Positions 3,964 through 47,224 of a stretch of DNA of 64,000 nt are shown here, piece by piece; within the stretch, counting starts at the first letter, position 1; each line of letters begins with the position of its first letter. The stretch comes from Bilabrum cf. latius (taxonomy: Eukaryota). The stretch is taken from NCBI GenBank assembly GCA_965178125.1, contig OZ237742.1, forward strand, positions 744,001-808,000, given 5' to 3'. The position numbers were made by a program, and so were the translations under genes. Under the pieces are notes generated by a model. The model ran no database searches. It was given only the letters and a program-made list of their open reading frames with translations, and was not told where the DNA came from.

Positions 3964-5391
3964 ATGCATCTTCTGTACATGTGCGCAATTGTTTTGACTG
4001 CGTGGGTTAAGGCATCATCAGTCGTCGTGCAGTGCCAGAATGAAGCGAATTGCACAGCCGATCTTTCGAAAGCAGTTCAGGGAGTCGCTACAACAATTGT
4101 GCTGCAGTCAGGAATTGTATATCGAACTCTTCCGCTTCATGTGAACCGGTCAGACTTTACTATTTTGCTCTGCGAGGGAACGCAGCTGGAGGCCCTGCGC
4201 GGCGGGTACCATGGGTTGCATGATATGCTCTTGACAATCCGTGATTCTAGCAGGGTACAAGTGGCCGCTGCGCGGCACCCATCTACAAACATCAAGATGA
4301 TCAAATCTGCGGACGCTATATGGCCATGGGAATATGCTTCTGACGTGCTGCCGCCGAGGGCTCAAGTTGAATCAAGGCTGTGTAAGCCCGCCACGAGCGG
4401 CCCAAGCATGCCGGTGCTGCGCATGTGGCAAGAGGACTACATCAACCGGACCATGTACAACGGCAGCTAGTGGCGGCATGCCCTAGCAATCTACAGCTCA
4501 TCCCAGGTCAGCGTTGTAGGGCCCATGCTCCTCACCCGGTCTGGCGGCGACGGGATCTATGTCGATGGAGCGAGCAACTCGACCCTGCAGGGCCTGTGGT
4601 CGGATTGGAATTGGAGGAATGCAATGTCCGTCATCAGCGCCAAGAACCTGACCGTGTCAAGCTGCGTGTTCAGCAACACGACGGGCACGGCCCCTCGCGC
4701 AGGCATCGATTTCGAGCCGAACGGCTGGACGGACGCTCTGTTCGGCATCCAACTGAGCAGGTGCCTGGCGGCTGGGAACGGCGGCAGCGGCTTTGGCATC
4801 TCCGTCAGTGCTCTGTCGAACGAGTCGCTTCCGATCGACGTGGACTTTGACCAGTCTGTCGCTCGGGATTCTTATGTCGGCAGCGGCGTAACTTCCATCA
4901 CCTTTCGCGACCACGCCGACACGCAGCCGCGAGGACGCTTCGCCTTTCGCAACGGAGCGGTGGTGCACACCAAGAACCCGGGAGTGAGCGTGACTACGCC
5001 GTGGGATCGGATCAAAGTCTCGCTGGAGAACACGAGCATCACCGACACGGCGTATGCGCACGAGTATTGGACCCCCATTGAGGTTGCCCAGTCCCGTGCC
5101 GGCCCGAATCGGACTTGGCAATCCGGAGGACTGTCGATGAGCAACGTCACGATCGGGGATCCAGGGGCGGCCCATGCTTCCCCTGGGTCACCCACTCGGC
5201 CGTATATCCATGTGTGTGACGAGTGCAAGTCCGTGTCCATGGGTGGCGGCAGCCTCGTGCAGGTACGGTGCGAGCAGGGGCAGGCTCCAAACTGCACTGC
5301 CCAGGTGGACGGGGTTGGCTCCTGGTCCTCGCGGGACATCCGTTTGGACTACCGATGCGGTTGCGTCGGCTCAGGCACTAGCTTTAGTTAA
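3964..5391 (+). CDS. Secreted right-handed beta-helix (pectin lyase-like fold) protein
   Basis: Hydrophobic N-terminus MHLLYMCAIVLTAWVKA; motifs S*WRHAL, SGGDGIYV, NWRNAMSVIS, GTAPRAGIDFEPN. One in-frame TAG at 4468; ends TAA followed by AT-rich sequence. Confidence 0.75.
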
Positions 5392-5552
5392 TGTTTCCTT
5401 GTTTTAATTGCCTAAAGAGAATAATGTGGGAGCAGTAATGATGCAGTTGCACCTAGCGAGCTTTTTCTAGAAGTAGCGTAATGTTAATGATTTTCCTGTT
5501 CACCGAAGGCCACGCGGCCTCACTCCAACCGGATTTCCTAGCGAATTTAAGC

Positions 5553-7711
5553 ATGCTCGGCCGCCGTAGTCTTCATGCTCTGTCTCGTTCGCTTCAGAGC
5601 TCCCGTCGCATCGGCACCCGTGGCATGGCCACCGGAAAGGACGTCCGATTCGGGGCAGAGGTGAGATCCGGGCGCGAAGCTTGCCCAGTATCTTCTGCGG
5701 CTTGACTCTCGCATCGGCAGGCCATGGTGCCGCACAGCAGCTATCATGAATTTCCTACTATACTTAATTGTCTCGCAGGCCCGAGCAGCCATGCTTGTGG
5801 GAGTTGACAAGCTTGCGGATGCCGTTCAGGTGAGAAGCCACGCGGCACACGTGTGTGCGCGCAAATTGCGCCAGGTTTCGCTGGCAGCGCCAGTCCTTGC
5901 AATATTGCGAAAATCATAGCAATGACTCATGGTCTTCGGGTAGCCATGGTGCTCGCTGATCAGGAGCTGCCATTTGCAGCGGCTGCAATCCATGCGGTTC
6001 GTCGCCACGTCGGCGGAAGATTTCTTGTGCCCACGCGGCAGTACTGTTTCACAACGTGCTAAAGGCGACCTTGTGTATTTAATTTTAGTAGAAGCTATGA
6101 TCATCTTGTGTAGTCATTGGACTGAACTTTTTGGCATCGCAGGTGACGCTCGGCCCCAAGGGCAGGAACGCCCTGCTGGACCAGCCCTTCGGTGCCCCCA
6201 AGATCACCAAGGACGGCGTGACCGTGGCCAAGCACATCGAGTTCAAGGATCGCCTGCGCAACATGGGCGCCCAGCTCGTGCGCCAGGTGGCCTCCAAGAC
6301 CAACGACCTGGCAGGCGACGGCACCACCACGAGCACCGTGCTCGCCCGCGCCATCTACGCAGAGGGCTGCCGCAGCGTGGCCGCGGGGATGAACCCCATG
6401 GAGCTGCGCAAGGGCATGAACCGCGCCGTGGACGCGATCGTGGCCTGGCTGGGCGAGAAGAGCGTGGAGGTGTCAAGCTCGGAGGAGGTGTCCCAGGTGG
6501 CCACCATCTCGGCCAACAACGACAAGGACATTGGCGCGCTGATCGGCACCGCCATCGAGAAGGTGGGCCGCGAGGGAGTGATCACCGTGCAGGACGGGCG
6601 CACGCTGGATGACGAGCTCGAGGTTGTGGAGGGCATGCGCTTCGACAGGGGCTACATCTCCCCCTATTTCCTGACGGACGCCAAGACCGGCAAGTGCGAG
6701 TTCGAGAAGCCCTACCTGCTGCTGGTGGAGAAGAGGGTGAGCTCCATCCAGAGCATCATGGGCATCCTCGAGGCCGTGTTCAGGGAACAGAGGCCACTCG
6801 TCATCATCGCCGAGGACGTGGAGAGCGACGCTCTCGCCACGCTCATCCTCAACAAGGTGCGCGCCAACGCCAAGGTGGCTGCCGTCAAGGCGCCCGGATT
6901 CGGCGACAACCGCAAGGCGAACCTGCAGGACATTGCTGAGCTGACCGGCGGCACCGTCATCAGCGAGGAGCTGAACCTGACCCTAGAGAAGGCCACGATG
7001 GACCAGCTGGGCCAGTGCAAGAAGATCACCATCAGCAAGGACGACACCCTCATCCTTGACGGAGAGGGCGAGAAGGCGGCCATCGAGGCCAGGTGCGAGG
7101 CAATCCGCGACCAGATGGACCGCACCACGAGCGAGTACGAGAAGGAGAAGCTGCAAGAGAGGCTGGCCAAGCTGTCGGGAGGCGTGGCCGTCATCCGAGT
7201 GGGTGGCGCGTCCGAGGTGGAGGTAGGCGAGAAGAAGGACAGGGTCACTGACGCGCTGAACGCCACGCGAGCGGCCGTGGAGGAGGGCATCGTGCCCGGC
7301 GGAGGCACCGCCCTGCTGTACGCGAGCAAGACGCTGGACAAGCTGATCGAGGAGGCCACGACCGAGGATGAGAAGGTCGGCATCAAGATCATCCAGTCCG
7401 CCGTCAGGAAGCCAGCTGAGACCATCGCGGCCAACGCGGGAGTGAGCGGCCAGGTGGTTGCCGGCAAGCTGCTGGAGAGCGAGGATTTCAAGTTTGGGTA
7501 CAACGCCGCCACCGGCGATTACGTCGACATGGTAAGCGCGGGAATCATCGACCCCACCAAGGTGGTGCGGACCGCCCTTCAGGATGCCGCCTCCGTGGCC
7601 GGTCTCATGACCACCACCGAGGCCGCCGTTGTGGAGCTGCCCGCGGACGACAAGGCTGGGGGGGAGCCAGCCGGCGGCATGGGCATGGGAAGCATGGGAC
7701 AGATGTTCTGA
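5553..7711 (+). CDS. HSP60: Mitochondrial chaperonin 60 (HSP60/GroEL); 3 exons: 5553-5660, 5779-5829, 6143-7711
   Basis: Arg/Ser-rich presequence, [26 protein letters not shown] tail; GT-AG introns restore the frame; ends TGA; no in-frame TAG. Confidence 0.97.
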
Positions 7712-7927
7712 GCAAAGCTCTTGCACGCTCAAGAAGTAGCCTTGTGTGACTTGTGCACAGATTTCACTCGGCTTGTTGGCTTTTGGGGGTAGGGGCCGAA
7801 TTGGCTGTGAAGAGGCCTAGGTACTGCCATCCATTGTCACCCTGGGTCCTTATCTCTGGGAATTCTACTAAGGCGCACTTCCTCTCAAGCCTCAATTGAA
7901 GCCATCAGGCCGCGCGTCCCTGTCGAA

Positions 7928-9845
7928 TCACCCCTGGTGATGCGCGTTTTGAACGTGCTCCTTGAGATGGCTAGCCTGCCCAAAGCGCTTCCCGCACACA
8001 GAGCACTCGTGCTTGCGTTCGTCCATGTGCACACCCCTCACGTGAGTCCTGAGAGTGCTTGCCTGCCCAAAGCGCTTCCCGCACACAGAGCACTCGTGCT
8101 TGCGCTCGTCCATGTGCACAGTGCTCACGTGCTGCTTGAGAGTGCTAGCCCGTCCAAAGCGCTTCCCGCACACAGAGCACTCGTGCTTGCGCTCGTCCAT
8201 GTGCACAGTGCTCACGTGCTGCTTGAGAGTGCTTGCCCGTCCAAAGAGCTTCCCGCACACAGAGCACTCGTGCTTGCGCTCGTCCATGTGCACAGTGCTC
8301 ACGTGAGTCCTGAGAGTGCTTGCCTGCCCAAAGAGCTTCCCGCACACAAAGCACTCGTGCTTGCGCTCGTCCATGTGCACAGTGCTCACGTGCTGCTTGA
8401 GGGTGCTTGCCCGTCCAAAGAGCTTCCCGCACACAGAGCACTCGTGCTTGCGCTCGTCCATGTGCACAGTGCTCACGTGAGTCCTGAGATGGCTAGCCTG
8501 CCCAAAGCGCTTCCCGCACACAGAGCACTCGTGCTTGCGCTCGTCCATGTGCACAGTGCTCACGTGCTGCTTGAGAGTGCTTGCCTGCCCAAAGCGCTTC
8601 CCGCACACAAAGCACTCGTGCTTGCGCTCGTCCATGTGCATAGTCGTCACGTGCTGCTTGAGATGGCTAGCCTGCCCAAAGAGCTTCCCGCACACAGAGC
8701 ACTCGTGCTTGCGCTCGTCCATGTGCACAGTGCTCACGTGCTGCTTGAGAGTGCTTGCCCGTCCAAAGAGCTTCCCGCACACAGAGCACTCGTGCTTGCG
8801 CTCGTCCATGTGCACAGTGCTCACGTGCTGCTTGAGATTGCTTGCCTCCCCAAAGCGCTTCCCGCACACAGAGCACTCGTGCTTGCGCTCGTCCATGTGC
8901 ACAGTGCTCACGTGAGTCCTGAGATGGCTAGCCTGCCCAAAGCGCTTCCCGCACACAGAGCACTTGTGCTTGCGCTCGTCCATGTGCACAGTGCTCACGT
9001 GCTGCTTGAGATTGCTTGCCCGTCCAAAGCGCTTCCCGCACACAAAGCACTTGTGCTTGCGCTCGTCCATGTGCACAGTGCTCACGTGAGTCCTGAGATG
9101 GCTAGCCTGCCCAAAGAGCTTCCCGCACACAGAGCACTCGTGCTTGCGCTCGTCCAGATGCACTGCAGATACATGCCTCCTCAAGCTTGTCATAGAGCTT
9201 AGAGTTCTCCCGCAAACCTCACAGACATGTTTAGCTATGCTTGCGCTTGCTTGTGTTCGCCGTTTCTTCGCTGTAACGCCGTGGGTGGCTGCAAGCTATT
9301 GACTATTATCGATATCTTGGGTCCTACCGCGTTTCTGGCCCACAACTGCAAATTCATGGCCACGCGCGCTGCTGGCAGCTGCGGACTCTGGCATGCTGAC
9401 AGATGCTGCGAATTCCATAGAACGGCGTCCGCTCGACGCCGCTTCCTTTATGTCGCTGTTAAGCTAACTCTTTGTACCACCAGCTTGTCGCCGGGTGCCT
9501 ACCAACGAATGATCCGGGCACTATTTGAACGATCTAGTCTATTCGTGCCAGTCTTCCTCACAGTCGCTTTGACTACTGCTGCTTGAATAACGCACAAGAT
9601 CGATAACACCGGGACCCGTTCCTGCCATCTCGGGAACCTACCGGCTGAGCGATCCTCGATACGAGAATGCTACTGGGCGAGATGTTTGGCTGGATAGACC
9701 CGAGCTCGCGTGTTCCGAACTAAGCTCGATGATAGCAAAGATGTTCTCAGTCTCCCAACTATGGTAAGCTTCACTCCAATTCGGAAGAATGTCAGCCTTC
9801 CAGCCAGGGTGTGTGTCGCTCCGAATTTGCAAAAATACCTTCTTG
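7928..9845 (-). CDS. C2H2 zinc-finger array protein (15 fingers) with N-terminal extension; true 5' end uncertain
   Basis: Cx2C-x12-Hx4H units. Frame continues upstream of 9193 (first finger KHVCEVCGR, KKRR NLS-like) through TAGs at 9296, 9464, 9521, 9539, 9638 to a possible acceptor near 9846. Ends TGA. Confidence 0.85.
7940..9155. repeat. 87-bp coding minisatellite, 14 near-identical units (zinc fingers)
   Basis: Period 87 bp (e.g. GCACACAGAGCACTCG at 8081 and 8168); few variable sites. Confidence 0.95.
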
Positions 9846-10177
9846 CTGCATGCGTGTTGTCTTCAAGTTAAGGAAGTTCACGCCTAGAACCTGTTGGTGT
9901 TCAATATAAACATTGATAGAAACTACCGAACTGCATACAGCTACACTGTTTCAATTTGGCACAAGCCAGTCTGAGCAAGTACTCGATATTGAAATACGGA
10001 ACCCATCAGGTTGTGAAAAGTTACAGACAGGGATTGGATTGCCACGCCGACCTGATGTTACAGTACGCCCTTATTTCATTGACTGTTGCACTCAGTTGGC
10101 AGTGTTTACCCGCATTATCTCTGGCGAAGTCGTTTGGAGGGCAACGCACCGCACCAAACACTCTGGCAATCCAGAGT

Positions 10178-13100
10178 ATGCTTCGAAGGGTGCGCTCCGA
10201 GCTGCTACTCGCAGCGAGTCTAGAAACAGTCTTAGCTCGGACAGACCGCCGGTTGTCGCTTGAACGTGCCATTCAGCAGAATGAGCGCCGCGAGAGGGCA
10301 CTGCAAGCAGCTTCCAGGTCGAGAGGTGATCCGCCCCCACCAGGTGGTTGGAAGAATTTCGGAACTTCTTACTAGAATACGATAATATCAAAGGACAAGC
10401 AGACCGGACTCTGGGTGCCAGATATCTCTTTCCCGTTCAGTGACAGCGGCTCTGCAACCATTGCTGCATCAAGCCGTCCAGCTGTCGCAAGGCAATTATC
10501 GAGCTCTCCCAGCTCATACGGTGTGCCTGAAGATAGCGTACTTGTTTAGCATTGTTTTGCAATGGCAAAAGCTTTGCACCAATTTGAGGCCGCCTCCGAT
10601 GGGCTCGGCTGGGTGCCCTGGGTCGACCTGCGCCAAGTCGGGCGAACTGCTGGCAGCAGCCCGGCGTTGGTTTCCAAGCAGCTTGTGCAGGAATCCATTG
10701 GCCTCATGGTTGCCATTGACACGATAAAGCCGGTTCGTGGGACACAAGCTGCACTGAACGAAGCGTTGTCTGCTTGCAGCACAACCCTAACCGGCCTAGC
10801 AAGCAGGCTCGACCGGCATGGCGGAAAGGCGCGTGGCAATCGTCTGGAGCGCTCCAGCCGAGACATGCTGGCAATCGCTGCTTTTATTGCCCGCTCATCC
10901 GTGGGCTACGACGCACAGTGCTCGCTCAACTGTTCCTCAGCCTGGTCGCGCGCACTCGGAGAGGACCGCGGTTCACAGGCCGTGACAAAGCTTCTTGCCG
11001 CGGGCAAACCGGCAGTGCAGGCCATCCGCAGCGCATCCGAGCTGCCGGGCGGTTTGAATGCTATTGGTATGAAATCATGGATCGATCGTTCGCTCAACCG
11101 CACAAAGTCGCATGCAACCAGAGGAGCAGCGACCGATGCACAGAGCGGAGCATCGCCTCAGTTGCAGTGCGCCAGCCCCAGGAGCGACGACTAGAAGGGC
11201 AGCAAGACCAGCCAGGGCGGGGTGTGCCTGGATTTCATCTCAACGACCCATGGAACGACGTTGACGGCATCCATTCGGCGGGAAGCTAGCACCGACAGCG
11301 CTGAGCTGCCGTAGCGCTCAGTTGCAGGCTCGGTTCGACTTGCCCACGATCCGATGCTGGGGTGCGCACACCTCGGCCTGGTGCATGGAACAGAAGACTC
11401 GCAGGACGAGGTCACAGAAACCATCGAGATAGGGCAGCTTGCTTCCAGTCGATTCGCTGGAGCTTCCTATCGTGACGGTCACGGCCCGAGGAGGCGTGCC
11501 CTCGGTGCAGGCACGACCGACATCAGGCTAGATCAGCGAGGCAGGAGCAGCCCTGTCCCTACGAGCTCATCCAAAGGGACTGCACGGCAAGGCAGAGCTC
11601 CAGGTGGGGCGCTAGTACCAACGCATGTCATCCACGGTCACAGGTACGGCGCAGCGTTGGCACCTAGTCTCGGATCCAGGCACGGTTCCTCCCTTCCCGG
11701 CATAGCTCACCACTCAGTGTCCAAGACCAGGAGAAAGCTTGCTTCCTACCTGAATGCCACTGTCGCTAGGCGCCAGGTCGACGCACTTCGAGCTCTTCAG
11801 CAGAGAGCAGGGGGCACTGGCGGAGCAGTAGCTGCCGGGCAGATCCCGGGCGATTTCCTAGCGCCCATCGCAGGGGACGGTCGCATCGAGAGAGAGGACG
11901 TGGACCGCGTGGCGGCGGCTGTGAGGGGGCTGCTCTCCTGCCCCGTTTCGGTTGGGGACAAATACTCCGCCCAGCTGGGCCCCTTTCTCGGGATCGGGGA
12001 GGCAGGTCGAAGCACAAACAGCAAAGTAGCCGAGGTGCTGCGCATCCCCGGGGCCCTCGAGAGCATGCACAGCTTGGAGTGCGGGGAGACGGGCTCAGGG
12101 GGCGGCTCTTCGATGTGGAGCAACTGGAACCTGGGTGGCGTGCAAAGGAGGGCTGGGCCCGAGCGGTGCGACGTTCACGACAGCTGGCATGCGGTATTCG
12201 AGCTGGCTGCCGAGTCCATCTCCCTGAGAGCGATGTCTGAAGCCGGGAATAGCTCCAGGCGCACTGTCGGTGGTCCCGACCGACAGAGAAGCGATATCAC
12301 CCTTAACTCCGAGCCTAGCGTTTGGGAAGCTGCAGTATTCATGATGAGACAGGCATGGTCCGCCCTTGCCACCTGGTTGAGCCTCGCTACAGGTGGAGAC
12401 TTGCAGGGTGCAGCATTACCCACGTCGACCCGATCGAAAGCGGATGCTAGCTAGTACAGTCTTCTGTCAACACCTACAATTCGCTTTGCGCCTGGCCACG
12501 CCTCAAAAGCTGCCGGGGCTGGCGTTATGGACCGCAGGCGTCGGACGAAAGGCGACTCTGGCGGTTCCCGCAGTAATTCGGTGGATACTGAGGCTCTAGA
12601 GCAGTGGCCTGAGGGGCTCCCCAAGCCGTACGAAGAGGAGCACGAGAGAGGCAGGCAGCGGTTGAAACGAGGCGGGTTTCTTGGTCCAGTGCTGAATCCC
12701 AAGCGGCCCATGGACCATTTCCTCGGCATCGACTGGGAGTGGGCGGGGTTCCGGGCTACGCAGGTCATCGGTTTCGTGACTGTTGTCCCCGTTCGACTTG
12801 CTGCCGATGCGGCGCTGGTCGGGCTGAATGCGGTGGTGCATGCCGCCGATGCGATCGGTTTTCTCGTCGTGGACGCGATTGGTCTTGCACCAGCCGAAAG
12901 GAGCTGCGCGCCTGCAGCCGGCCAAGCAGGCCTGGTACAGTTCCCCGCGTGCCTGACTCGCGGAGTCATCCACCCAACCGTCGAAGGGATAGGTGGTACC
13001 GGCAGCGTGGAGTGGATTGAGTCGCAAGTTGAGTGGCTGGACAGGCGATTGGTGCGTCTGTTCAGGCAGGCAGGCATGTACCGCTTCGTTTCAAGGCTTT

Positions 13101-14707
13101 GGTTCGTCTACGACGCGATGGTCGAGGCTGCATTCCCGCCCTCAGACACGAACTACCACCGGGCTGAGGTGCTTGCACTCCTGCAGACTGGTACTGCCCT
13201 CACGTCGATGGCTGCAGCGGCGCGAGACCGGGCGCACGTTGCGGCTACGGAGGCAGTTTCTCTCGTGCTTGGCAGCCGCCCGGTCGATCACGACACTGCA
13301 TCGCTGCTGCTACAGCAGAGCGGGCGAATGCAACTCATCGGACGGGAGGCGGCGCTTGATATTCATTGCACTGCAACGTGGAGCGGTGATGACCCAGCCT
13401 CCTCCTCGCTAGCTGCCTGCCTGGCTGCCCTCAGCAGCAGCGATTAGGACGGCCGCTCGAATGCTGGCTTTAGGCACCGCGCGTGGGAGGCGGAGCAGGT
13501 AACTGCAATCGTTGACGCCAGGGTCGGCATGACCTCAAATTCTGCGGCTGGTGCCGTGTATCTGAGGCTGCGACCGTCTGCTTGGTGGCAGCTCTACCCC
13601 CCCTTGTCTGTCACAGAGGTGTCATTTCCGCCATCTCACATGCAGATGCAGGGCCGGGCCACTTCGAGCCATGCTGCCGTTGGCCTTGTAGCTGCATCTC
13701 GCTGTGTTGGCGACTTGAAGTGGAGCGGAGAATGCCCTTGGAAGCACCTGCATGATGTGCAACCGAGGCAGCTGGGCCTCTAGCCCTCGAGGCTCGGTTT
13801 GATGGCAGAGCCAAGAGCAGGCGGCAGCAGCCTATGGCTGCTCGCACACGGAGAAGCACGCGATGCAGCCCCAGATGACCCCAGCACAGCTGACTCCATG
13901 CGAACGATGCACGCCCTTTTATTGCCTGATTCGAAACAGGTAAGCCGGTGCAAAGCCCAAGGCAGCGCGACCGCTATTCAAGGACCTGGCGGGAGCACGC
14001 CGTGCGTCGTGCAGTCTGATGAGCTGGCCAGGCTGCTCCAGAACGCCAAGGAGGCACTTGCACAATGGCTTGATCCAGCAATGGCAGGAACTGGTGGGAC
14101 GTCGACCTCTAGGAGAGAGGCGAGCGAGGCGAGCACGAGCGCGCAGGAGCGCGAGCAGTTGCTCCGGCGAGCGCAAGCAGAGCAGGCCCCGGTCACGGGC
14201 CAGAATAACTCACGGTCGCATCAAAGTGGTACAACAACGCAGTCAGCGAGGACGCGCTGGCAGCACGAGCATGCCGTGCCTGCTTGGCTTCGAGTTCTGC
14301 TCCTAGGCTCGGACGGCGTGCGCAGGAGCGAGCTCCCGCTGGACGTGGAGGCTGTGCTCGCTCTGCTCCCCGCCTCTCGCGGTGGTGACACGGGCGATGC
14401 TTCGATGAAGAATCAACGACCAAGCAGTGGCGGTGGGCGGTGGGTGCGAGCGGAAAATGGAATAGTGGTTGGCGGGGGGAGCCGCGGGAGGGGGTAGACC
14501 GGTGGTGCTTCGGACGGGACTGGAGCTGGTACTGGCACGATGCGCCTGCACATACTCGTGGGGGAGCTTTGCGACCGGATGGCCGGGGTGATGGGTGCTG
14601 TCTCATGGGAGGCGGCAGCTCCAGCAGTTTCTGATACTCGGGGTGGGTAGGGGGCACGTGTGGACACCTGGGTGATTGCCCTGGCGCAGGGGCCAGGGGC
14701 GTGCTGA
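10178..14707 (+). CDS. Large hypothetical protein (about 1500 aa)
   Basis: ORFs at 9956, 10562, 11354, 12527, 13529 and 13799 share one frame and are separated only by TAG (9 sites); first TGA at 14705. No family recognised; start codon tentative. Confidence 0.7.
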
Positions 14708-14929
14708 TCTGATCTTGTTCGATTCGATTCGAATGCCGGGTCGATGGATGAAGCAGATAGAGAGAACGAAATACATGAATCGTTATAACTCACGACAGTC
14801 CAACAGCGCCAGAGTCTCCCCAAAGTGGTGCCTGGCTGGCAGCCTCGGCAGAGCCTTCTCTGCCAGCAGCCCAGTTCGCCCAGCCAGAAGCTAGGATGGG
14901 AGGGGAGACAGGTCCAACAGCCAGTTAGT

Positions 14930-15496
14930 TCACTCCTCGTCGTCGTCATCGTCGTCATCCAGGTCGTCCAACGGGTTGTCACTCTTCTTCTTCATAACAC
15001 GGAAGAACTCGTCGGGGCTGATGAAGCCGTCCTTGTCCCTGTCTGCCTCCTCAATCATCTCGCGCATCTCGTCGTCGGTCAGGTTCTCGCCCAGCTCCGT
15101 GGCCACGCGCTTCAGGTTCTTGAAGCTGATCTTACCCGTGTTATCGTCGTCGAACAGGGCAAATACCTTCATGATTTCCTCGCGGCTGTCCCTCTCGCCC
15201 ATCTTGCCGGTCATCATCTCGACAAACTCGTTGAAATCGATGGTCCCGGAATCGTCGGCGTCAACCTGAGCAATCATCTCCTTCACCTCGCTCTTCTTCA
15301 CGGCAAAGCCAAGCGCGCGCATTGCCGCCTTCAGCTCCTTAGCATCAATGGTTCCGCTTCCATCGGTATCAAATAGGTTGAAAGCCTCTCGCAGCTCATC
15401 CAACTGCTCGGTATCCAGCTTCGGTGCGTCCGCGCGACGGGAGCTCCCACCCAGGCCGCCACCAAGGCGCCCCTTCGAAGCAGATGGGCTAAGCAT
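14930..15496 (-). CDS. CETN: Centrin (caltractin), 4 EF-hands
   Basis: [51 protein letters not shown]; ends TGA; acidic tail. Confidence 0.95.
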
Positions 15497-15979
15497 AGCT
15501 CTAGACTGCGTTGACCTCAACGATGCCTGCAAGAGTTGCAGCGGGAGCAAGAATTGAACAGAGTCAGAGCGTGGAATCAAACCACCAGCTGGTCCTGGGC
15601 GCCACGGCGAGTGCAAACGACCGCACCGGTAACTACCAAATGCAATCGACACGATGCCTAATCTTCATGGCCACTAGCAGCAAACGGTGCTGACTTTGAC
15701 GTGGGCAACCACTGCCAGAGCGATGCTGTATCTAGTTGCCGCCAACCAACCAGCACACGCGCCAACCCAGATCAAACCAACGATATGAAATCATAACAGT
15801 ATGCACACACTGATTGACACATCTTTCTTACCATATTGATATCCGCTGCTGACCAAGAGGCACTGCGAGAGGTTGCCGTTGGGCCCGCCAGGTCTTCAAA
15901 ATCGAGATCGAAACTATACGCTACAAATGAACCGATTGAACTTCGGAACTATCGTCAACAAATAGAACAGCGACAGTCT

Positions 15980-16918
15980 ATGGCTGGCGTATCCGCTGAG
16001 GAACCGGAAAAGAAACCTGTTCCCATCGAGAGGGAGGAAGATGAAAAGGAAGGAATCGAGCCTTCGGATTTGAAAGTGATATTGTTAGGTGACAGCGCTG
16101 TTGGGAAAAGCAAGCTAGTTGAGAGGTTCTTACTGGACAAGTACAACTCGAGGACAAGATCAACATATGCGCTGACACTATATAGGTAAGTTTATCTGGC
16201 CGGTGATTCGTGGGTGTCTTTTGCACATGGTGAAGCTGAGCAAACGTCACCTCCAACGGGTCTGAGCCTGTGGTGCCCTCTATGCAAGCGCAGGTATGAC
16301 TGCAAGATGACAGTTGATGATACAATAGGCGAAGAAGAGTTCAAGGTAGATATCTGGGACACGGCAGGCCAGGAAAAGTTCAACTCGATGCACGCCTCGT
16401 ACTACTACGGCGCCCACGCATGCATTATGGTCTTCGACGTGACTCGGAAAGCTACCTATCAGCATTTGCCAAATTGGTACAATGAATTAAGAACATACTG
16501 TCCGAAGATACCCTGCATTGTCCTGGCGAACAAGATCGATTTCAACAAGGAGGTCACAAAGAAGTCCTTCAAGTTTCCCATCAAGCACGGCCTGCCCATG
16601 CGTTTCGTGTCTGCCGCGGATGGCACGAACGTCGTGCAGATCTTCTAGGAAGCGATTCGGGACGCCATGGTGTACAAACGGACGAGCACGGACATCATGG
16701 CAGACGTGATGGACCTGCTCTAGGACGAGAGGCTGGGGGAGGGGCACGCAGGCAGGTTCTCCAAGGTGAGAGCAGAGGCGCGACGGGAAGACGGGGGTGA
16801 TAGCGGGGCTGATGGCTCTGCTGCTGGGAGTGGTCCTGGCGGGAGCAGTGCCGGGGGGGAGGAGGAGAAGGAAGGGGACAGTAGTGCTGAATCGGGGAGC
16901 GGAAGTGGGGGTACCTGA
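15980..16918 (+). CDS. RABL2: Rab-like GTPase RABL2; intron 16186-16293
   Basis: GDSAVGKSKLVERFL, STYALTLY, WDTAGQE, MHASYY, NKID, VSAADGTNVV. The conserved C-terminal helix continues through TAG 16646 and 16721; ends TGA. Confidence 0.92.
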
Positions 16919-17086: not shown

Positions 17087-18809
17087 TCAGTACACGTCGG
17101 CTATCTGGTCCGCAATGGAGTCGCCCATGCGCACCCCCATGCCCACCTTGCCCTTGCCCTTGGACGTGATGCCCTTTTTCTTGTTCCTCTTCTTGAAGGC
17201 CTTGATCATGTCGTTGATCAGCTTGTCAACGGCCTTGCTGAGAGCTAGGCACGAGTCCGCGTCCAGACTCCCTTCCTTATTCTCGCAGCCCTGGGAGACG
17301 GCAGCCATGAGGAGGTCCCTGAGTGCATCGCGGAGGGGGGCGCGGCTGCCACCTTCCTTACGCAGCTGCACTGCCTTGCCGCACAGCAGCTCCATGGCCA
17401 CGCAAAAGTCCCCAGTCGTACCCAGGGGCATGGCCTCGGCCTTCTGGCGATCCGTGACTGCCTTGTCCTCGCCTGCGCCCTCCTCGTCGATATCTCCGGT
17501 CATCTTGGCGGCGGCCACATCGTCGGGATCCTCCTCGCCCTCGCCCTCGCCCTCGGCGCCATCATCGCTGTCGCTGTCGCTGTCAAGCCCCATGGCCGCG
17601 CTGGCGATGCGCTTCTCCTCGTACTTCTTCACGTTCGCCTGCCACTCCCTCAACGCCTTGGGGTCCTTGGGCTGCTCCCCAAACTTTTTGATGATGCGCT
17701 CCCTCCTCCTCCTGTCCTTCTCCGTCATCTAGGCGAGCTTGCTGTCCAGAGCGGCCTGCTCCTCGGCGGCTTTCCTAGCTTCCTCCTCCTCTTGCGCCTT
17801 TTTCTTCGCCTCCTCCTCGTCGGCGGCTTCGGCACCGGCACCGGCGCCGGACGAGGGTCCCTCGCCGTCCCCCTCCCCCTCGTCCTCGTCTGCAAACTCT
17901 CCGTCGTCGTCATCTGCGAAGCCGTCGTCCTCGCCATCGTCTGCAAACTCGTCGTCTTCGCCAGCGACCTCGTCCTCCCACTCCTCCCCTTCCCCGGCCG
18001 CTGCGCCCGCCCCTGCCGTGCCGTCTTCCAGCTCATCCTCCCACTCCTCGCCCTCGGGCTCCGCGGCGGCAGCCGATGCTGGCGCGGGCGCAGCAGCCGA
18101 TGACGCGCCACCCGCGGCGGCCCCACGGCCCGACTGCTTAGTCTTCTCTTTTCTTCGCTGCTTCTTCTTGCTTGCTGCCTCTTTCTTTGGCCTCTTTTTC
18201 AACAGGTTGAGCTTGGCCTGCACGTGCTTGCTCGCTTTGTTGGCCTCCTCGCGCTTCAAGCAGCCAGCCTGGCCGCTGCAGCCGGCTTCAAACCCCTTGA
18301 TGAGACTCTTCAACACAGCACCATCAGTGGCCTCATTCCCAATGGCCTCTGCGCCCATGGCACGGTCCACGATGACACTGGCTACTCCGCAGAAGTCGTC
18401 CATGGTGGCCAGCTCCATCTTGTCCAGGTTGGATGCAATGGTTTCCCTGCCGACAGCCTCGATCTTCTCTTCTTCCTCTTCAGCATCCTCACCATCAGAC
18501 CCTCCCATCAAGTCATCTGCGACTTCTTCCTCTCCACCTGATGCGAATTCCTCGTCGGACAGATCATCTGCGATACAAGCAAAGGCGGGCGCAAGCGCGG
18601 CGATGCAAGCTAGACGCACTGCTGTAGGTAACTATAGTGCGGATTGAATGCACTCCTTGTAGTAGTGTTTAGCGCGTCACTTGCTCACCGAAATCTGCGA
18701 TACGTGGAGAACGTAGGTTGCATTCGAATAAGAGCGGTTCCAAACGTAACCATTATAAAGATGCTGCAGCTTGCAGCTGACAGACACCATAATCAACAAG
18801 CTCACCCAT
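17087..18809 (-). CDS. eIF3j/Hcr1-like acidic protein; exons 18809-18806, 18694-18689, 18567-17087
   Basis: Acidic EEWED motifs, KYEEKRIASAAMG, MPLGTTGDF helical domain followed by a Lys-rich tail resemble eIF3j. One TAG at 17729; ends TGA. Family call is from remembered motif resemblance. Confidence 0.6.
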
Positions 18810-19118: not shown

Positions 19119-22100
19119 ATGTCTGATCGCGCCGGTGACGACCTAGTATCGCGCATGCGCCGAATCGAAGGTACGTCTGGGGCTAGTGGATCGTATGGTG
19201 GGGGTGCTGGAGCGGCTGTGGGCAGCACAGGGGCTGGCGACGTGCAGCAGCAACTGTCTGCGCTATCTGCGCAAATGCAAGGCATTCGGGAAGACAACAA
19301 GAAGATTCAGGAAAGCCTGCAAGGATTGAGTCAGCTGAAACCGTTAGTTGAGCAGCTGTCGCAGCTCACTTAGGCAGTAATAACGATTAGCAGCGGGGCC
19401 GCGGGAGCACCACCGTCTGGCGCGCGGCAACATGGGGGCGCGCCCACCGTGGAGGAGTCGCCCGCTCGCCCAAGCCCTGGCATGCGCTCTGTCGCGTCAG
19501 CATCCCAGCCATAGATAGAGCTCCAGCGCTCGGGCATGTCGGCAGATCCCACTGCGCCGTCCAGCGGAGCCGCTGCTCCTGCCCCGCAGGAGAGCAAGGC
19601 ACCGGATGACGACGAGGCGGCACTGAGGGCGATCCGCAGGGACCTTCCGCCGCCACAGAGCGGGACAGGGGCCGATTTCTCGGCGTCTGGCAGCCTGAGG
19701 GCGGCCGCGGGCGCAGGTGCCGGCCCCAGTGTGGGCCCGGGTGCCGGGGCTGCCTTCCCCAACCCCGCCGCCCCGGAGCCCCCCGTTGACGAAGAGGACG
19801 CGCTGCGCGCGGCCCAGGCAGAAGACATCCCGCCGCACGGCCTCGTAGAGGACGGAAAGTGGACGGCTGCCCCCGTCCCGGTGGAGAGCGACATCCGGAT
19901 CTGGACGGGCACGTGGAACATGGGCGCCAAGGACCCTTTCCACAAGAAGGACATCACCAAGAGCATGGACCTCGTGACTAGGACCCTGGAAAAGTTCATC
20001 CCGCTGGACTATGACGTGTACGTGGTCGGCGTGCAGGAGGCCATGAGCGACTCGCTCTACCAGGCCATCGCTGCATACACGGGGTGCTTCCAGCTGCCGC
20101 TCTACTCGAAGCTTGAGCCGGCCAAGGAGTCAAAAGACAGCGGCACGCACTCTAGGCGCATGGGCAGGGCCATTTGCGTGCAGGAGTTCCTGGACGACTT
20201 TGCAGACGGTGAGCTTGGCCTTGAAGAATGCAGCATTGCTCCGCGCGCTGAATCTGCTGCGTTTGGCTTGCCCGGGCTCGCCCAACGTTTTCCACGGTCC
20301 TACGTTTTCCCGACCACTTTTCCAGCTGTCCTCCCAACCCGCCCGCAGGCAAGCCCCCGACACCGGTGACCACCGTGCTCAACATGATGGACCGCGTGTA
20401 CGGCAGGGGTGACGGCGCTCTCCTGCGGCCCAAGTTCACCGGGATCGCGGTCTTCGTGTCGGCGGCCGCCGCCCCGTACGTCCGCCTCCTCGGCGTGTAC
20501 AAGCACTCGTTTGGGGCCACTGAGGGCAGCAAGGGCGGCGTGGGTGTGGCTCTGGGAGTCTACGACCAGACCATGGCCTTCGTGAACTGCCACCTGGCCA
20601 GCAAGCGGATCGCTGCAAGGCAGCAGCAGTACAGCGATCTCGTGGAAAGGCTCGGCGCCAAGCTCGGGGGGCGCGGTTTCGGCCTCAACGAGGAGTTCCA
20701 TCACATCGTTTGGATGGGCGATCTTAACTACCACTGCACCGGCGTCACGGCCGAGGAAGTGGCCACCATGATCAAGCAGGGCAGGCTGGAGGACCTGCTG
20801 ATGCACCACGACGAGCTCATCCAGGAGAGGTTTAACAAGAGGGTCTTCTTCAACTACGACGAGCCGCTCATGCCCAGGGACTTCTTCCCGACGTACAAGA
20901 AGGTGCCCCACCGCGGCACCATCGACTACGACCGCGACCCGGACTGGGTCAAGCGGGTGTACGAGCTCTACTACAAGGAGCCTCTCATCAAGGGAGGCAG
21001 GACCGTGGAGCGCGTGCCGTCGTGGACGGACCGCATCCAGTACCACTCGCTCAGGTCCACCTACGGTAGGCTGCTTCCCGAGTCGACGGACCCCGATCAG
21101 GAGGGCGCCCCACAGAACTACCGCCCGGTAAATGACGGCATGGACATCAGCGACCACTCGCCTGTCTTTGCGACCTGGAGGCTCCGCATCAAGCTGGATG
21201 CGTGCGACGACGACGCCGTGGCTGAGGCTGCTGCGGCCAGGCAGCGCATACGCGGCTGCGCCATCGGTACAGGTACGCACGGCATCTCTGTGTGGCAGGT
21301 GCACCCCGTCCTGCGCCCCGTCCACTGCGTGGTCATCGTCAAGAACGTCCGGATCCTCTACAAGAAGGGCACGGGCGCGCCCAGGGCCCTGTCACTGCTG
21401 TTCCCTCTGCCCTTCGAGGATGGAGACGACCTCCCGGAGAGGTCAAAGGCAGTGCGCATGCCCTCTGCCGCCACGGCCTCGCACAGCTACAACCAGGCCG
21501 TGGACTCCGTGCCCTGCGTCGTGAACGCCGTGATCAGCCGCGCCGGCAAAATCCCCGACCTGCACCTCCTGCTCAAGGTGAGCCTGGACGACGGAACCAA
21601 GGCGCAGACGGTCGTGCAGATGCGCGACCTTGGCATCGACGTGCCGGTGGCACCCCCCGCGCTGCAGGGAGCCATCGAGAGGCGCAGGCACCTGCCGCTC
21701 ATCAGCCAGGGCAGGCCCGCCGAGTCGAGGGGGCACAAAGTAGCCGTTGAGTTCACGGTGGACTTCCGCGCCACGTACCTGGAGGACGACGAGGCGGCAG
21801 AGCACGGCCTGGCGCTGGGGCTGGACGGGTACACCAAGACGGCGCTGGCGCAGGGCGGGGCCAGCGCCGCCGGAGGCGGGGCCGGTGCTCTCGACGTGAG
21901 CGCCGCGGCGGACCGTCTTCGAGGCACCGGAGGCGGCATGGGCACTAGCGGCAGCGTGCTCGCCTCCCCGATGCGTGGGCCCATGTACCGCGACGACAGC
22001 GTGGACGGGTCCTTCGTTGGCAGCGGTGCTGCGGGGTCGGCGTACGGTGGAGACAGCGGCAAGGGCGCTGCTGGGGTGTACGAGGAAGTCGTGATCGACG

Positions 22101-29880: not shown

Positions 29881-29916
<36 letters not shown>

Positions 29917-36068: not shown

Positions 36069-36247
36069 GGTGGTTGTGCGGCTAGGCCAAGAGAACTTGT
36101 CTATTTGTTCTAGATTTCGCCGAGACAGCGGCCCAGCAGCTGTCTGTGCTGGGCCCCAACTGCTCAACGTCGCGATGCTCGTGAAGGTTCGTCGTGCCTG
36201 CCACGATGATGTGGCCACTTTCTTAGCCTTCCCTATCCCTGGACAAT

Positions 36248-38806
36248 ATGTAGCGAACCGTATAGCTTGCAGCAGCTGGTGTTGGACTTGGTGTGCTTGG
36301 ACTTGGTGCAACTAGGTACTGGTACTCGCGGCGACTGTCGAAAATGACCGTCTCGAAGAATCACACGAACGAGAGCGCGCTCTTGCATCTGCTTGCTTTC
36401 GATGGCATGGCGTTCATGGGAGGCCAGTATGCAAATAATCTTGAGATGGAGTGCAGAAACTTCAAGAAGACTCAAGATTCCCTGGCCCTAAGCCTGATGC
36501 GAGCTGCAGCACCGTCTGAGTACGGCAAGAAGTACAATCTTGCTGCCCTTAGCAATGTGGAGATGCTTCGGGACCAGCACCCAATCACAAACTCTAATGA
36601 TTACGAAGATATTGTTGCGAAAGTGGCGGCGGGGCAATCACGGGCGCTGTTCGGATCACAGACGACGATCAAGCAACTGGGCCGCACGTCTGGCACATCC
36701 GGTTCGCACCGCAATTTGGTGACAACTGACGACTAGTCCCGGGCCTTCTTTTTGTACGGTGTTATGGTCGCCTTCGATACGCTGTTCAGGTGGGTCCCAG
36801 ACGCCATGCAGCCGCAGAAGGACCTCAAGTTAATGTTCCAGCCCAAGTACGAGATCGCGGAGGGCTCCGGGCTGCGGATCGGGCCCAACGCCAGCACGCC
36901 AGAAGACGTTAAAACGACCGCATCTCTGTATTCCACCCCAGTTGAAGCATACGAATGCGAGAGCGAACGCGACACTCTGTACCTGCACCTGCTGTTTGCC
37001 CTGCGAGACGCCGACCTGGGCCTCATCGAGAGCAACTTCGCGAGCGGTGTGCTCGACGCTCTCACCATTCTAGAGGACCCTAAAATCAGGAAGGCACTGG
37101 TCGGAGACATTGCTCGTGGAACTATCTCCCAGGAGCACACTGAATCGCTGGCCCCACACGCGCGGGAAGCGCTGCTCACCAACTCGAGGGGTGACCGGGA
37201 GCGAGCGGCGCAAGTGCTCCGCTCCTTGCTCGCTCACGACGAGCGAGGCAAGCGGGTCCAGCAGCAGCCGCTGGGCGAGTCTGGTGTGACGAGTGCGGCC
37301 GGGGGCTGGCGATCCTCCGGCAGCCTGGTGCGGGACCTGTGGCCCAAGCTCAGGTGCGTGCTTGCGGTTACCACCGGGCAATTCAGCGTGTATAAGGATG
37401 TGCTTCGAAGGAAGTACCTCCCGCCCGCAACGGACCTGCCGATTTATTCGCCCTTTTACGCGGCCACCGAGGGGCTCATCGGTGTGAATGTGGCCCCGTT
37501 CGATGACGGGCTGCCTCCCCCCGACGGCAAGAGGGGCTTCTTCGTCGAGGCCCTCAGGGACGGATTGCGCGGCGCCGGTTCCGCCGCGGAGGCGCCCCCG
37601 CCCGGACCCCCGCCTCCTCGCCCTCCGCCATCGTACGAGTCAGAGTCCGCGGCGCCGCGCGCCGTGGTTCCGCAGGGGCAGGGTGAGGAAGAGAAGGCCG
37701 CGCTGGAGACCCTGACCGCGGAGGAGCGAGCCGTGGCAGAGCAAGTGCTGCCGCTTGGTGGGGGCACGCTGCCCGCCGAGAACGCCTATCTGCTCCACCC
37801 CCGCGCGATGGTTTTCGAGCTACTGCCTCTAGACAGAGACACGAAGTCAAAGATGCAAGGCACAGACGGTGCGGATGAACCCAAGACAGCTGCCGATGCC
37901 TCCACAACCGGGAGCACCAGCACCAGCACCAGCACCAGCACCAGCACCAGCACCAGCACCAGCACCAGCACCAGCACCAGCACCAGCACCAGCACCAGCA
38001 CCAGCACTAGCACCAGTGCCGTTCGCAAGCACTAGGAAGGCGGCGCGATTCTGCCCAGCGATGCAATTGTGGGGCAGTCATACGAGCTAGTAGCAACGAA
38101 TCTGAGCGGCCTGTGGCGGTGCCGGATCGGTGACGTGGTGCGTGTGATCGGCAAGCACCGCGGGCAGGTGCCTGTCGTGCTTTTCGAGAAGAGACAGGGG
38201 CAGGTGCTGAACGCCAAGGGGGAGAAAAGCAACGAGACGTGCCTGTTGCGGGCGATGGAAAGGCTCGATGAGCACCTGGCGAAAGAGAGAGGAGATGCGC
38301 CTCCTCCTCCTCCTCCCGCACCCACCACAGGCACAAGCACAGGCACAGGCACAGGTAGCACCACAGCAGGGGGCCCAACTGGGGCCGATTCCGGCTCGCA
38401 AGGCTCGGTAGCGAGACAGCAATGGCAGGTCCTGAGCGACTTCACGTTCGTAGAACCCGCCATAGCTGCAGAATCAGGCGTGTGCGAAGGTGGGCTGTCT
38501 CGGTACACCGCGTTCGTGGAGATCGCAGAGGAGGGCGGGGCGAGAGCGAGCGAGCATGGCGTCGATCTCGGCGCGCTCTCCAATGTCCTAGATGACGGTC
38601 TGCGGGACGGAAACTCGCTATATGCGGATTTTAGAAGTACGGGAAGGATGCAGGCGCCCTGCGTCATTGCAGTGAGGCCGGGGACTTTCACAAAGGTGCG
38701 GCAGCAGCTCGTTGAGGCCGGGGCTGGACCGTCCCAGGCCAAGGTGCCCCGAGTTACCCGAAATCTGGATGTCGTTTAGCTGTTGCAGGGTACCCGACGA
38801 GTATGA
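36248..38806 (+). CDS. GH3-family (GHDC-like) acyl-acid amido synthetase
   Basis: N-terminal anchor, RTSGTSG, YAATEGLIGVN, YELVATNLSGLWRCRIGDVV, KVPRV; TAG at 36251, 36263, 36734, 38033, 38777; ends TGA. Confidence 0.88.
37913..38016 (+). repeat. (AGCACC)n coding microsatellite, about 17 units, read as Ser-Thr
   Basis: Hexamer run inside the GH3 gene. Confidence 0.95.
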
Positions 38807-43623: not shown

Positions 43624-43668
<45 letters not shown>

Positions 43669-45027: not shown

Positions 45028-46107
45028 AAGGATCTGCTTGACCGCGCTCCAGCGGTGCTTGACCAGCTCATCCACCACTGCAGGGGGCAGCACGCTAGAG
45101 CCCCCGACCCTGGCCAGAAGCCCGAGCAGCTCTGCATGCACTGTTCCCTGGCCGTTGCTGGCGAGAATGTCCCTCGTGGGTATGCCGTACTCGGCGCCCC
45201 TCGTGTCCGTGCATTTGCCGCCTGCTTCGGTCACTAGCAGCGTGCCTGCACTGAGGTCCCAGCTGTTGAGATCGAGCTCCACGAATGCAGTGCACCTCCC
45301 GCACGCGGTGTATGCCAGGTGCAGAGCGGCAGATCCAAGGTTGCGGATGGCCAGAGCCTCTTCGGCGAGACCACCACTGATGATGTGCATCGTCTCCCTT
45401 GCCTCTCGCTGCGTGTGGTGGCCGTACGTAACTAGCGAGCGAGAAAGGTTCGTCACGCCTGCGTCCACGCGGATCGGCGAGCTATTGAGCCGCGCGCCGC
45501 ACCCCCTGACGGCGCTGAACATCTCGTCTCTGTATGGATGATATATGACACCCACCACCACCTGGCCTTTGTGCGCGACACCAATGGAGACAACAGAGCA
45601 CTTGAGGTCGAACACAAACATCCTGCGATGGGCGTAGTGAATTGCGCTTGGAACAGCTGGTGGCGGGCTAAGCAACCGAGGGCATCCCGCACCAAGTCTA
45701 TGCGTGGAATATGACTGCTATTCTCACGTGGTGCCATCGATTGGATCAACAATCCACAGGTACGTATCACTGTGCTTGTCAAGTGCCTCCTTACAAGCTG
45801 CCTTAGAAGCAGCTGATCCCGCGGCTGTGGACTCTTCTCCGAGCATGCCATGGTCCGGAAATTCAGTATTTATGCCTGATTCAATGACATCCTAGCAAGC
45901 CTTGTCGATTTTGGTCACTAGATCCTTTGATGAGCTTTTTTCCTCGATGCCCAGACCATCAGAGCCTCCACCCCGATCGAGCATGACTTTGCCTGCGGCT
46001 CTTGCAAACTTTTCAGCTGCAGCCAAAATCTTGCCCAGCTCTGCTGGGACTGTGGACTGAAACCCATCGGCATTCGAGGACATTTTCGGTTCAGACACCC
46101 CCGCCAT
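44965..46107 (-). CDS. Inositol monophosphatase (SuhB/IMPA family); intron 45727-45623
   Basis: DLVTKIDKAC*, LGEES, WIVDPIDGTT, RNLGSAAL, WDLSAG; TAG at 45892; ends TGA. Confidence 0.92.
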
Positions 46108-46339
46108 TGTACTTATAGTTCTACAACTCGACGAACGAAGACAAGTAGTAAGTTATGCACGAACTGCACGATATGCACCAGCAGTGCAAGGTGCGTGATA
46201 TACTGGAATGCCCGCGAATTATCAACATGAAACCTGATGAACATTGGCAATGCAGTGCACTTCGGATTGTCGAGAAAATGAATGTGCTTCTCTGCCCGGA
46301 AAGCGAACAATCTGTACAATACACAAACACTTGATCGCA

Positions 46340-47224
46340 TTAAATACCCCCAGCACGAGCTAAATCACTTGGGGCACCGGCCACAGTGCTACTCAACGCC
46401 TATGCGGGCGCCTGGCCGGCCGATCGAGCACTTGCTTCGCCGGCTCCCTCGCCGTGGTCCCCGCTAGGTCTAGCCGGACCCGAGTCAGCCGCCGCGCTCA
46501 CATCCCCTGATACGGCCATATCCGGACCAAAGAACAACTTGCTCGGTTCTATAGATCTCGCCTCTCGAATTCGAACCGGCAGAGCGTCGAGAAGCGCGTC
46601 GCATAAGTGAGCATCGTGCACGGTCCGGCATTGGAACTGCCCAGTGGCCAGAGCTATGCTTGCGGCTAGACGATGCTTACACTGCGTCATGCAGAGAGAT
46701 CCATATCAGATGCCAGAAAAGAAATTGCGCATGTTTGCGCTCGTAGTGATAACATGTCGCGTGCGTGCGCTTGCTCACCATGACAGCGGGCTTGCCAGCC
46801 GCGAATCTGGGGTTGGACAGGAAAGCAGGGCATGTGCACATGTTCTCCCAAACGCAGTACGCCTTTCGATCATCTTTGATGCCGCCAGGCCCACTTTCAG
46901 ACCGGGAATGATTCCCCCTCGACCGTCGAACCACGATGACCTCTCGCCCGCTCGGCTCTGCCTCCAAAAGGACGACACACCCCTTGTCGACGAGCTCAAG
47001 ACTCTTTTCCAACAAACCATCAGGAATGACAGAAGAAAGATCTCCCATAGAGTGCATATCAACTGCGCAGGAAGAGCGGTGTTCTCGTGAGTTTTGTAGG
47101 AATTGCAAGTGCAGCTTCACTTGGACTGTGACAAAAATCGAGGCTTACTTGCTCCAACACTTGCAACATGCTCCAACACATCAATTGCTAAGTCTTCAAA
47201 CGCTAGCTTGTCCCATGGATCCAT
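46340..47224 (-). CDS. ZSWIM7: SWIM zinc-finger protein (ZSWIM7/SWS1-like); introns 47148-47063 and 46778-46682
   Basis: LEKSLELVD, CTCPAF...MCKH SWIM motif restored by splicing; TAG at 46400, then TAA at 46340. Confidence 0.75.

Follow-up and report, generated by a model that had tools for sequence, protein, structure and literature searches.

UAG as a probable sense codon beside UAA and UGA terminators in GC-rich nuclear DNA of Bilabrum cf. latius

The genes of the window and the data used

We describe here how the three standard stop triplets are used in 64,000 nucleotides of DNA from Bilabrum cf. latius (assembly GCA_965178125.1, contig OZ237742.1, positions 744,001 to 808,000 of the forward strand), hereafter called the window, in whose own numbering all positions are given; TAG is present within its genes as an in-frame codon, while TAA and TGA are met in frame only where genes end. 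The window is GC-rich, gene-dense nuclear DNA from a flagellated eukaryote: its GC content is 60% (0.52-0.68 per 2 kb) and about 50.4 of the 64 kb are annotated as coding. The genes that could be named encode a KIF9-like kinesin, a mitochondrial-type Cpn60, a C2H2 protein with 14 fingers, a centrin, a RABL2-like GTPase, an inositol polyphosphate phosphatase (INPP5), a protein with two RRM domains, a RadD-like helicase, a GH3 protein, an inositol monophosphatase (IMPase), a GT90 glycosyltransferase, a cysteinyl-tRNA synthetase (CysRS), prefoldin 5, a PrsW-like protease, an ankyrin protein and a beta-helix protein. From these and other open frames a curated coding set was made, consisting of 27 segments and 15,593 in-frame codons.

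Contigs of seven sequencing runs (X1 to X7) match parts of the window. None of the matching runs is on record as RNA; three of them, X5, X6 and X7, were taken as transcript-like solely because their contigs skip GT..AG introns that are retained in X1. Nine short introns are skipped in this manner by X5-X7 contigs and read through by X1 contigs (Table 1); their donors are GTGAG, GTAAG or GTGGG, with a G at position +5 in all nine. They measure 94-313 bases and have a uniform 3' end, which is CGCAG in seven of the nine. After splicing, the frames of the cpn60, RABL2-like and RRM genes are continuous.

TAG is a sense codon

In the curated set, 90 codons are TAG and none is TAA or TGA. The raw long open reading frames (ORFs), 19 in number, give nearly the same picture (92 TAG, no TAA, no TGA), and the claim of the initial annotation, that TAA never occurs inside a recognisable gene against about 90 TAGs, is thus reproduced almost to the letter. 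With the three standard stops, 27 ORFs of at least 300 amino acids are found, the longest of 623; making TAG alone sense doubles their number to 54 and brings the longest to 1694, whereas making TAA alone sense gives 28, with the longest still at 623. When TGA is kept as the only stop, the longest frame is 1712, compared to 1694 with TAG alone as sense.

The in-frame TAGs lie inside Pfam domains, for example those of the kinesin, the helicase, GH3, CysRS and the ankyrin protein, and they are kept in the transcript-like contigs, in which no other letter is seen at those sites; they are therefore removed neither by RNA editing nor by splicing. One X5 contig runs unbroken and with no other letters across 9127-14767, and so spans the ten TAGs of a single-exon frame of 1597 codons. 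Likewise, X5 and X6 contigs cover 22452-23749 and 22467-23110 of the last exon of the RRM gene, again with no other letters. UAG is, then, a sense codon in spliced, conserved genes.

It behaves as a non-preferred one. In genes whose GC content at third codon positions (GC3) is at least 0.77 there are 7 TAGs in 3,020 codons, against 83 in 12,573 elsewhere (p = 0.003), i.e. UAG is about threefold rarer in the highest-GC3 genes. Three segments are devoid of TAG altogether, cpn60 (6140-7708), INPP5 exon 2 (20348-22117) and centrin (14933-15475), which together make 1,294 codons with a GC3 of 0.78-0.91.

TAA and TGA are missing from coding frames

The absence of TAA and TGA is a property of the reading frame. 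In the two other frames of the same 27 segments, on the sense strand, TAA is present 33 and 37 times (70), TAG 119 and 122 times (241) and TGA 259 and 239 times (498). A Fisher test comparing TAA and TAG, in frame (0 and 90) and out of frame (70 and 241), gives p = 5e-9; for TGA the two counts are 0 and 498. Per kb, there are 4.0 TAAs in annotated coding DNA as against 15.2 outside.

The initial annotation had reserved the possibility that GC bias could make a sense TAA rare. This reservation can be dropped, because codons ending in A still constitute 12-25% of the NNR pairs (pairs differing by a final A or G) in the genes of the window: 23% for Gln, 25% for Glu, 20% for Lys and 12% for the TTR codons of Leu. 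From these shares, 12-30 in-frame TAAs would be expected. The probability of a zero count lies between 9e-6 and 5e-12, and TAA makes up at most 3.3% (95% upper bound) of the in-frame UAR codons (UAA and UAG taken together).

The ORF counts given above do not draw on the curated set, and a further comparison was likewise made without gene models. Every TAA, TAG and TGA on either strand that has 40 stop-free codons on each side was taken, and each flank was scored by codon-usage log-odds with a cut-off of more than 6 per flank; as the long frames had served to train the codon weights, the procedure is not fully independent of them. Both sides are coding-like for 25 of 340 TAGs, for 0 of 74 TAAs and for 0 of 328 TGAs.

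Where genes end

For 25 genes the end could be defined: 22 close with TGA and three with TAA, in agreement with the earlier count of only about three TAA ends. The main terminator is exemplified by cpn60, whose TGA follows a C-terminus like that of its homologues (Table 1). Three frames meet a TAA before any TGA, those of the beta-helix gene, the two-RRM gene and a predicted two-exon gene that we call SWIM-like. The last name comes from a CxC...CxH motif, which we take to be SWIM-type, and from a weak Atlas lead (0.88) to a cluster with SWIM in 28% of its members.

The beta-helix TAA is the best supported of the three. It is followed by further in-frame TAAs at codons 8, 11, 30 and 32 and by a TGA at codon 33, and the sequence before it has a GC content of 0.63 and a coding score of 2.4, as against 0.39 and -22.4 after it, which bears out the initial description of a TAA followed by AT-rich sequence with more in-frame TAAs (four in 32 codons). 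In the alignment with the nearest orthologue (P0121, 64% identical), the C-terminus of the latter lies 8 residues before the position of the TAA. The start codon of cpn60 is only 162 bases downstream, and no match to the donor consensus GTRAG/GTGGG was found at this TAA.

The two other ends have less of this kind. Past the SWIM-like TAA, GC goes from 0.63 to 0.44, and about 237 bases of lower-GC spacer precede the ATG of the next gene on the same strand. The RRM TAA stands at the end of a frame spliced across three RNA-supported introns; the next in-frame stop is 33 codons further and the coding score falls by a small amount, from 4.5 to -0.7. UAA is thus shown to end the protein in the beta-helix gene, and it likely does so in the two other genes.

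Each of the three TAA stops has TG after it, giving TAATG at 5389-5393 (+), 22343-22347 (-) and 46338-46342 (-). TG follows 29 of the 409 TAAs of the window, and 3 of the 22 TGA stops. Three stops would agree in the dinucleotide that follows, whichever it is, with a probability of about 0.004, a post hoc value for n = 3; TAATG may hint at a context needed for termination at UAA.

The INPP5 (+) and RRM (-) genes are convergent, with stops 225 bases apart (22118-22347). Transcript-like contigs end 67 bases past the cpn60 stop and 126-143 bases past the INPP5 stop (22244-22261). From the closeness of the INPP5 and RRM stops and these INPP5 contig ends it follows that the 3' untranslated regions are short or overlapping. 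The TGTAA poly(A) motif of green algae is absent from the seven 3' regions that were inspected.

At the other coding-ORF boundaries examined, the TAAs are non-coding, being either intronic or upstream of a start. An in-frame TAA between two RABL2-like exons is part of the donor GTAAGT of an intron skipped in X5-X7 and retained in an X1 contig, and two more TAAs, one 5' of the RRM frame and one at the end of an RRM exon frame, lie in introns skipped in X5-X7 (Table 1). The TAA that precedes the 1694-codon frame falls in an intron which is a prediction only, and which has the form GTGAG...CGCAG, as do RNA-supported introns. For the SWIM-like and IMPase genes, the boundary TAAs lie 5' of the start codon. 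A TAA also closes a frame at 29692-30240 (+) that overlaps the tail of the helicase gene; it has a good codon-usage score, and was judged to be a repeat artefact, with Glu/Asp repeats where the helicase frame has an Arg/Gly box. We preferred the Arg/Gly frame, which has its TGA at 30159, although a frame change at the helicase tail, which would give a fourth TAA end, is conceivable.

Table 1. Positions of the TAG-containing frames, stops, introns and boundary triplets discussed in the text
Feature	Position	Strand	Remarks
Beta-helix protein coding sequence	3964-5388	+	one in-frame TAG (4468-4470); Pfam Beta_helix; 66 homologues
Beta-helix gene, TAA stop	5389-5391	+	closes frame 3799-5391
Cpn60 (mitochondrial-type), TGA stop	7709-7711	+	main-terminator example; protein ends GSMGQMF like homologues; TAG absent from its 523 codons
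Single-exon frame of 1597 codons	9917-14707	+	10 in-frame TAG; TGA end
In-frame TAA between two RABL2-like exons	16187-16189	+	within donor GTAAGT; intron 16186-16293, skipped in X5-X7, retained in X1 contig
Two-RRM gene, TAA stop	22345-22347	-	end of frame spliced across three RNA-supported introns
RRM gene, last exon	22348-23749	-	3 in-frame TAG; X5/X6 contigs
TAA 5' of RRM frame, intronic	23884-23886	-	intron 23750-23892, skipped in X5-X7
TAA ending RRM exon frame, intronic	23959-23961	-	intron 23953-24046, skipped in X5-X7
TAA 5' of 1694-codon frame	30984-30986	+	in predicted intron 30949-31037
Frame of 1694 codons	30987-36068	+	13 in-frame TAG; TGA end
In-frame TAG of IMPase gene	45892-45894	-	Q in P0193
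Predicted SWIM-like gene, TAA stop	46340-46342	-	closes predicted exon 2, 46343-46681
Introns	5661-5778, 5830-6142, 15527-15831, 16186-16293, 18569-18805, 20209-20348, 23750-23892, 23953-24046, 24128-24430		RNA-supported

The amino acid at UAG

The alignments suggest that UAG stands for Glu or Gln, with a slight lean to Glu, and they disfavour Ser and Leu. The best-conserved column is that of the single beta-helix TAG: among 64 aligned homologues, 60 have E, 2 have Y, 1 has A, 1 has G and none has Q, and the closest orthologue has E. A profile built from 66 homologues of this protein scores 295.8 with E, 291.7 with Q, 291.2 with S and 289.4 with L, which is among the lowest. Human prefoldin 5 (PFDN5) has E at the TAG column, and so have plant GH3 proteins at the C-terminal GH3 TAG, in all three of the alignments shown. 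The IMPase gene gives a mixed answer: at its TAG, Q is found in the closest relative (P0193, 71% identical), which also matches the window at the preceding 14 and the following 4 residues, and the column over 28 homologues holds 19 E, 7 Q and 2 gaps. The Gln reading that the initial annotation implied is thus matched in the closest IMPase relative, but Glu fits the beta-helix column better. At the kinesin TAG, KIF9-type kinesins have N.

Sums over domains do not separate the two residues much. Over 11 Pfam domains the bit scores add up to 1356.3 for Q, 1354.7 for E and 1349.9 for S, so that S is 6.4 behind Q and 4.8 behind E; five further Pfam domains give -1.0 for Q minus E, which leaves Q ahead of E by 0.6 bits overall. 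Ser was rejected, since it falls short of both in the Pfam sums, scores 4.6 bits below E with the beta-helix profile, and is seen in neither of the two well-sampled columns. Leu, scored in the beta-helix and RRM families only, was rejected too: it is near the bottom in the former, lowers the RRM_1 score from 16.5 to 14.1 in the latter, and is missing from the best columns. In the two best of these, from the beta-helix and IMPase alignments, both Ser and Leu are found in 0 of 64 and 0 of 26 sequences.

Other comparisons have less to say. In a per-gene Poisson fit, plain gene length beats any amino acid; Q is above E by 7 log units, a difference confounded by GC3 and by acidic repeats. A classifier based on flanking residues was indecisive, with V, L, R, S and A placed above Q and E lower still. 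Among the 150 helicase homologues obtained in a representative search, all six TAG columns are variable or gapped, and the CysRS TAG falls in an insertion, where the column is variable. The Rab-like exon had no Pfam match under any reading of TAG, and the Tim17-like exon no match in the PDB.

One code, and the alternatives to it

Three sequence features of a UAG-only code are found in the window: TAG is sense, TAA is stop-only and TGA is stop-only. The code that in our opinion probably accounts for them is one in which UAG was lost as a stop and is read as Glu or Gln, while UAA and UGA still terminate, UGA as the main and UAA as the minor signal. The decoupling of UAA from UAG, which had been proposed initially, is thereby upheld by the counts, the gene ends, one orthologue C-terminus and the flank comparison. 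By analogy with other codes, a tRNA with the anticodon CUA would pair with UAG only and leave UAA untouched, and eRF1 would have lost recognition of UAG and kept that of UAA and UGA. The narrower proposition that UAG means Glu, with UAA and UGA both still terminators, we regard as tentative and rather doubtful; were it to hold, the code could be at an early step in the loss of stop codons, in which UGA has already become the main stop and UAA is the next to go.

Several observations tell against this interpretation. The curated set and the codon weights derive from frames bounded by TAA and TGA, so that the argument is partly circular. A rare sense TAA, at less than about 3% of UAR codons, would be compatible with the counts. 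No tRNA gene and no Rfam match were found in the 64 kb, and eRF1 is not among the genes identified there. As to the gene ends, only one of the three has a C-terminus supported by an orthologue, and the listed pieces of transcript-like contigs reach neither the TAA at 5389 nor that at 22345. The earlier assertion that TAA ends the SWIM-like gene, and probably the RRM gene, holds to the extent that both TAAs do close open frames; but the SWIM-like gene is a model, neither exon of which has a match in Pfam or PDB, and the context of the RRM TAA, CAG/GTAATG, resembles a 5' splice site. This GTAAT has a T at +5, where the nine RNA-supported introns have G.

The most familiar alternative is the common UAR code, with UAA and UAG both sense, UGA the sole stop, and TAA made rare by GC bias. 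It would agree with the 60% GC, with the 22 of 25 genes closed by TGA and with TAA being less frequent in the window than either other triplet (409 on both strands, compared to 972 TAGs), but the expected 12-30 in-frame TAAs are all missing and treating TAA as sense does not lengthen the ORFs. Moreover, reading through the end of the beta-helix gene would produce 5 TAAs in 33 codons, when there are none in 15,593. We therefore hold this code to be highly improbable. It is also quite unlikely, if somewhat less so, that TAA is unassigned or avoided, UGA being the sole working terminator and the three TAA ends artefacts of gene models, for instance through a missed last exon. That TAA stands at just three of 25 ends would fit, as would the donor-like look of the RRM TAA and the fact that two of the three ends depend on models, without listed RNA cover or without RNA or family support. 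Against it, the beta-helix orthologue stops at most 8 residues from the TAA, where nothing fits the donor consensus; the score and GC drop after the beta-helix and SWIM-like TAAs as they do after most TGA stops (the RRM drop being small); and the next start codons lie 162 and about 237 bases past these two TAAs.

There is finally the possibility of a context-dependent code of the Blastocrithidia or Condylostoma type, where UAA, and perhaps UAG, would stop translation near the 3' end of the mRNA and would rarely be sense elsewhere. The short 3' untranslated regions apparent from the contig ends are a weak hint in this direction, and the few percent of sense TAA allowed by the counts would accommodate it. 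The in-frame count of zero for TAA (and for TGA) in the whole curated set speaks against it, however, as does the distribution of TAG, which is present within the last 10 codons in 2 of 25 genes when about 1.4 would be expected, i.e. without excess; the TAG located 9 codons ahead of the GH3 stop falls within the region aligned to plant GH3 proteins. Such a code seems to us unlikely.

Relation to known codes

Reassignment nearly always affects UAA and UAG jointly, since a tRNA that reads UAA also wobbles onto UAG and eRF1 recognises both through shared contacts. The combination of UAG as Gln with UAA and UGA as stops is NCBI table 15. Among the organisms named in PMC11687900, it is attributed to Iotanema spirale, Protocruzia tuzeti, Hartmannula sinica and Trochilia petrani. 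These share with the window that UAG alone is reassigned, that UAA terminates and that UAG is widespread in ordinary genes. In the phyllopharyngean ciliates with a UAG-only change, as described in the same source (PMC11687900), UAA is found at more than 90% of gene ends. The window differs in this respect, with UGA at 22 of 25 ends (88%) and UAA at three, and its 60% GC is not ciliate-like.

Other residues are on record for UAG. The green alga Scotinosphaera sp. is given as reading TAG as Ser with TAA and TGA as stops (PMC8271138); this too is a nuclear code where TAG alone is reassigned and both other triplets stop, although Ser fits the window poorly. Leu at UAG, with UAA kept as a stop, is listed for an uncultured rhizarian and three TARA phyllopharyngean genomes (PMC11687900), again a change of UAG alone, but Leu scores low in the window. 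In the oligohymenophorean ciliate PL0344, UAG is Glu and UAA is Lys (PMC10553269; cited in PMC11687900), so that the two triplets differ in meaning, as they do in the window, where UAG is perhaps Glu as well; UAA is sense in PL0344 only. In the UAR = Gln codes of Dasycladales, Cladophorales, Trentepohliales and many ciliates, TGA is the sole stop (PMC8271138, PMC11687900). A dominant TGA and a polar residue at TAG are common to these codes and the window, but TAA is sense in the former and not in the latter. The initial annotation was right in calling UAG-only cases rare, but its list of precedents omits Scotinosphaera (PMC8271138) and Protocruzia tuzeti (PMC11687900). In the sources cited, about eight nuclear cases are named, half of them AT-rich ciliates that end almost all their genes in UAA (PMC11687900).

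Our search of the literature, conducted mostly without subscription journals or supplements, found no report of a GC-rich non-ciliate with a UAG-only code, nor of the code of the source organism, nor of UAG = Glu combined with UAA and UGA as stops. If our interpretation is true, the window adds to a rare but known class of UAG-only codes, and would differ from the known ones should UAG prove to be Glu.

Each natural loss of UAG alone shows that eRF1 can be retuned to separate UAG from UAA, and tests models of stepwise code change. A GC-rich non-ciliate in which UGA is the main terminator and UAA a minor one would broaden the range of settings in which the two triplets are seen to part. Were UAG indeed Glu, this GC-rich flagellate, a non-ciliate with no close named relative, would be a clean system for the study of UAG/UAA discrimination by eRF1. 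There is also an effect on annotation: both the standard code and a UAR = Gln table would give wrong proteins for this genome. In the window the former truncates about 90 of them, and under the latter three genes are extended into their 3' untranslated regions.

Relatives and other features of the window

The best named match to Cpn60 is that of the glaucophyte Gloeochaete wittrockiana (71% identity), followed by land plants and Klebsormidium (65-68%); Cpn60 proteins from metagenomes and transcriptomes reach 72-77%. The IMPase and beta-helix matches point to no single group, and the independent origin proposed initially is a conjecture. The two longest of the related metagenome contigs, L001 and L002, have Cpn60 proteins of 77% and 73% identity, no synteny with the window, and yielded no orthologues. 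Their long ORFs are open already under the standard code, with cpn60 ending in TGA and in TAA; they look standard-coded, which falls short of a firm reading of their own code. The IMPase of a closer relative (P0209, 80% identical over the shared part) is on record only from a Met that lies 19 codons after the IMPase TAG of the window (45727-46104, -). Such a record is what standard-code annotation would leave if a TAG stood in frame further upstream, so the relative may share the code.

The runs X1-X7 match 3799-9900 at a share of 0.44-0.93 and come from three studies, all of 2025, under three organism labels. Either one organism was filed under several names or it travels with other cultures.

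Two genes have long low-complexity insertions of TP, TS, Pro and Gly within their catalytic domains, namely CysRS (53281-56520, +) and GH3 (36206-38803, +), and several in-frame TAGs fall in these insertions. The C2H2 array (7928-9200, -) is made of 14 near-identical zinc fingers. Over 9003-9669 the X1 contigs reach a summed word depth of 1768, compared to about 82 elsewhere, which suggests many similar genomic copies or a collapsed repeat.

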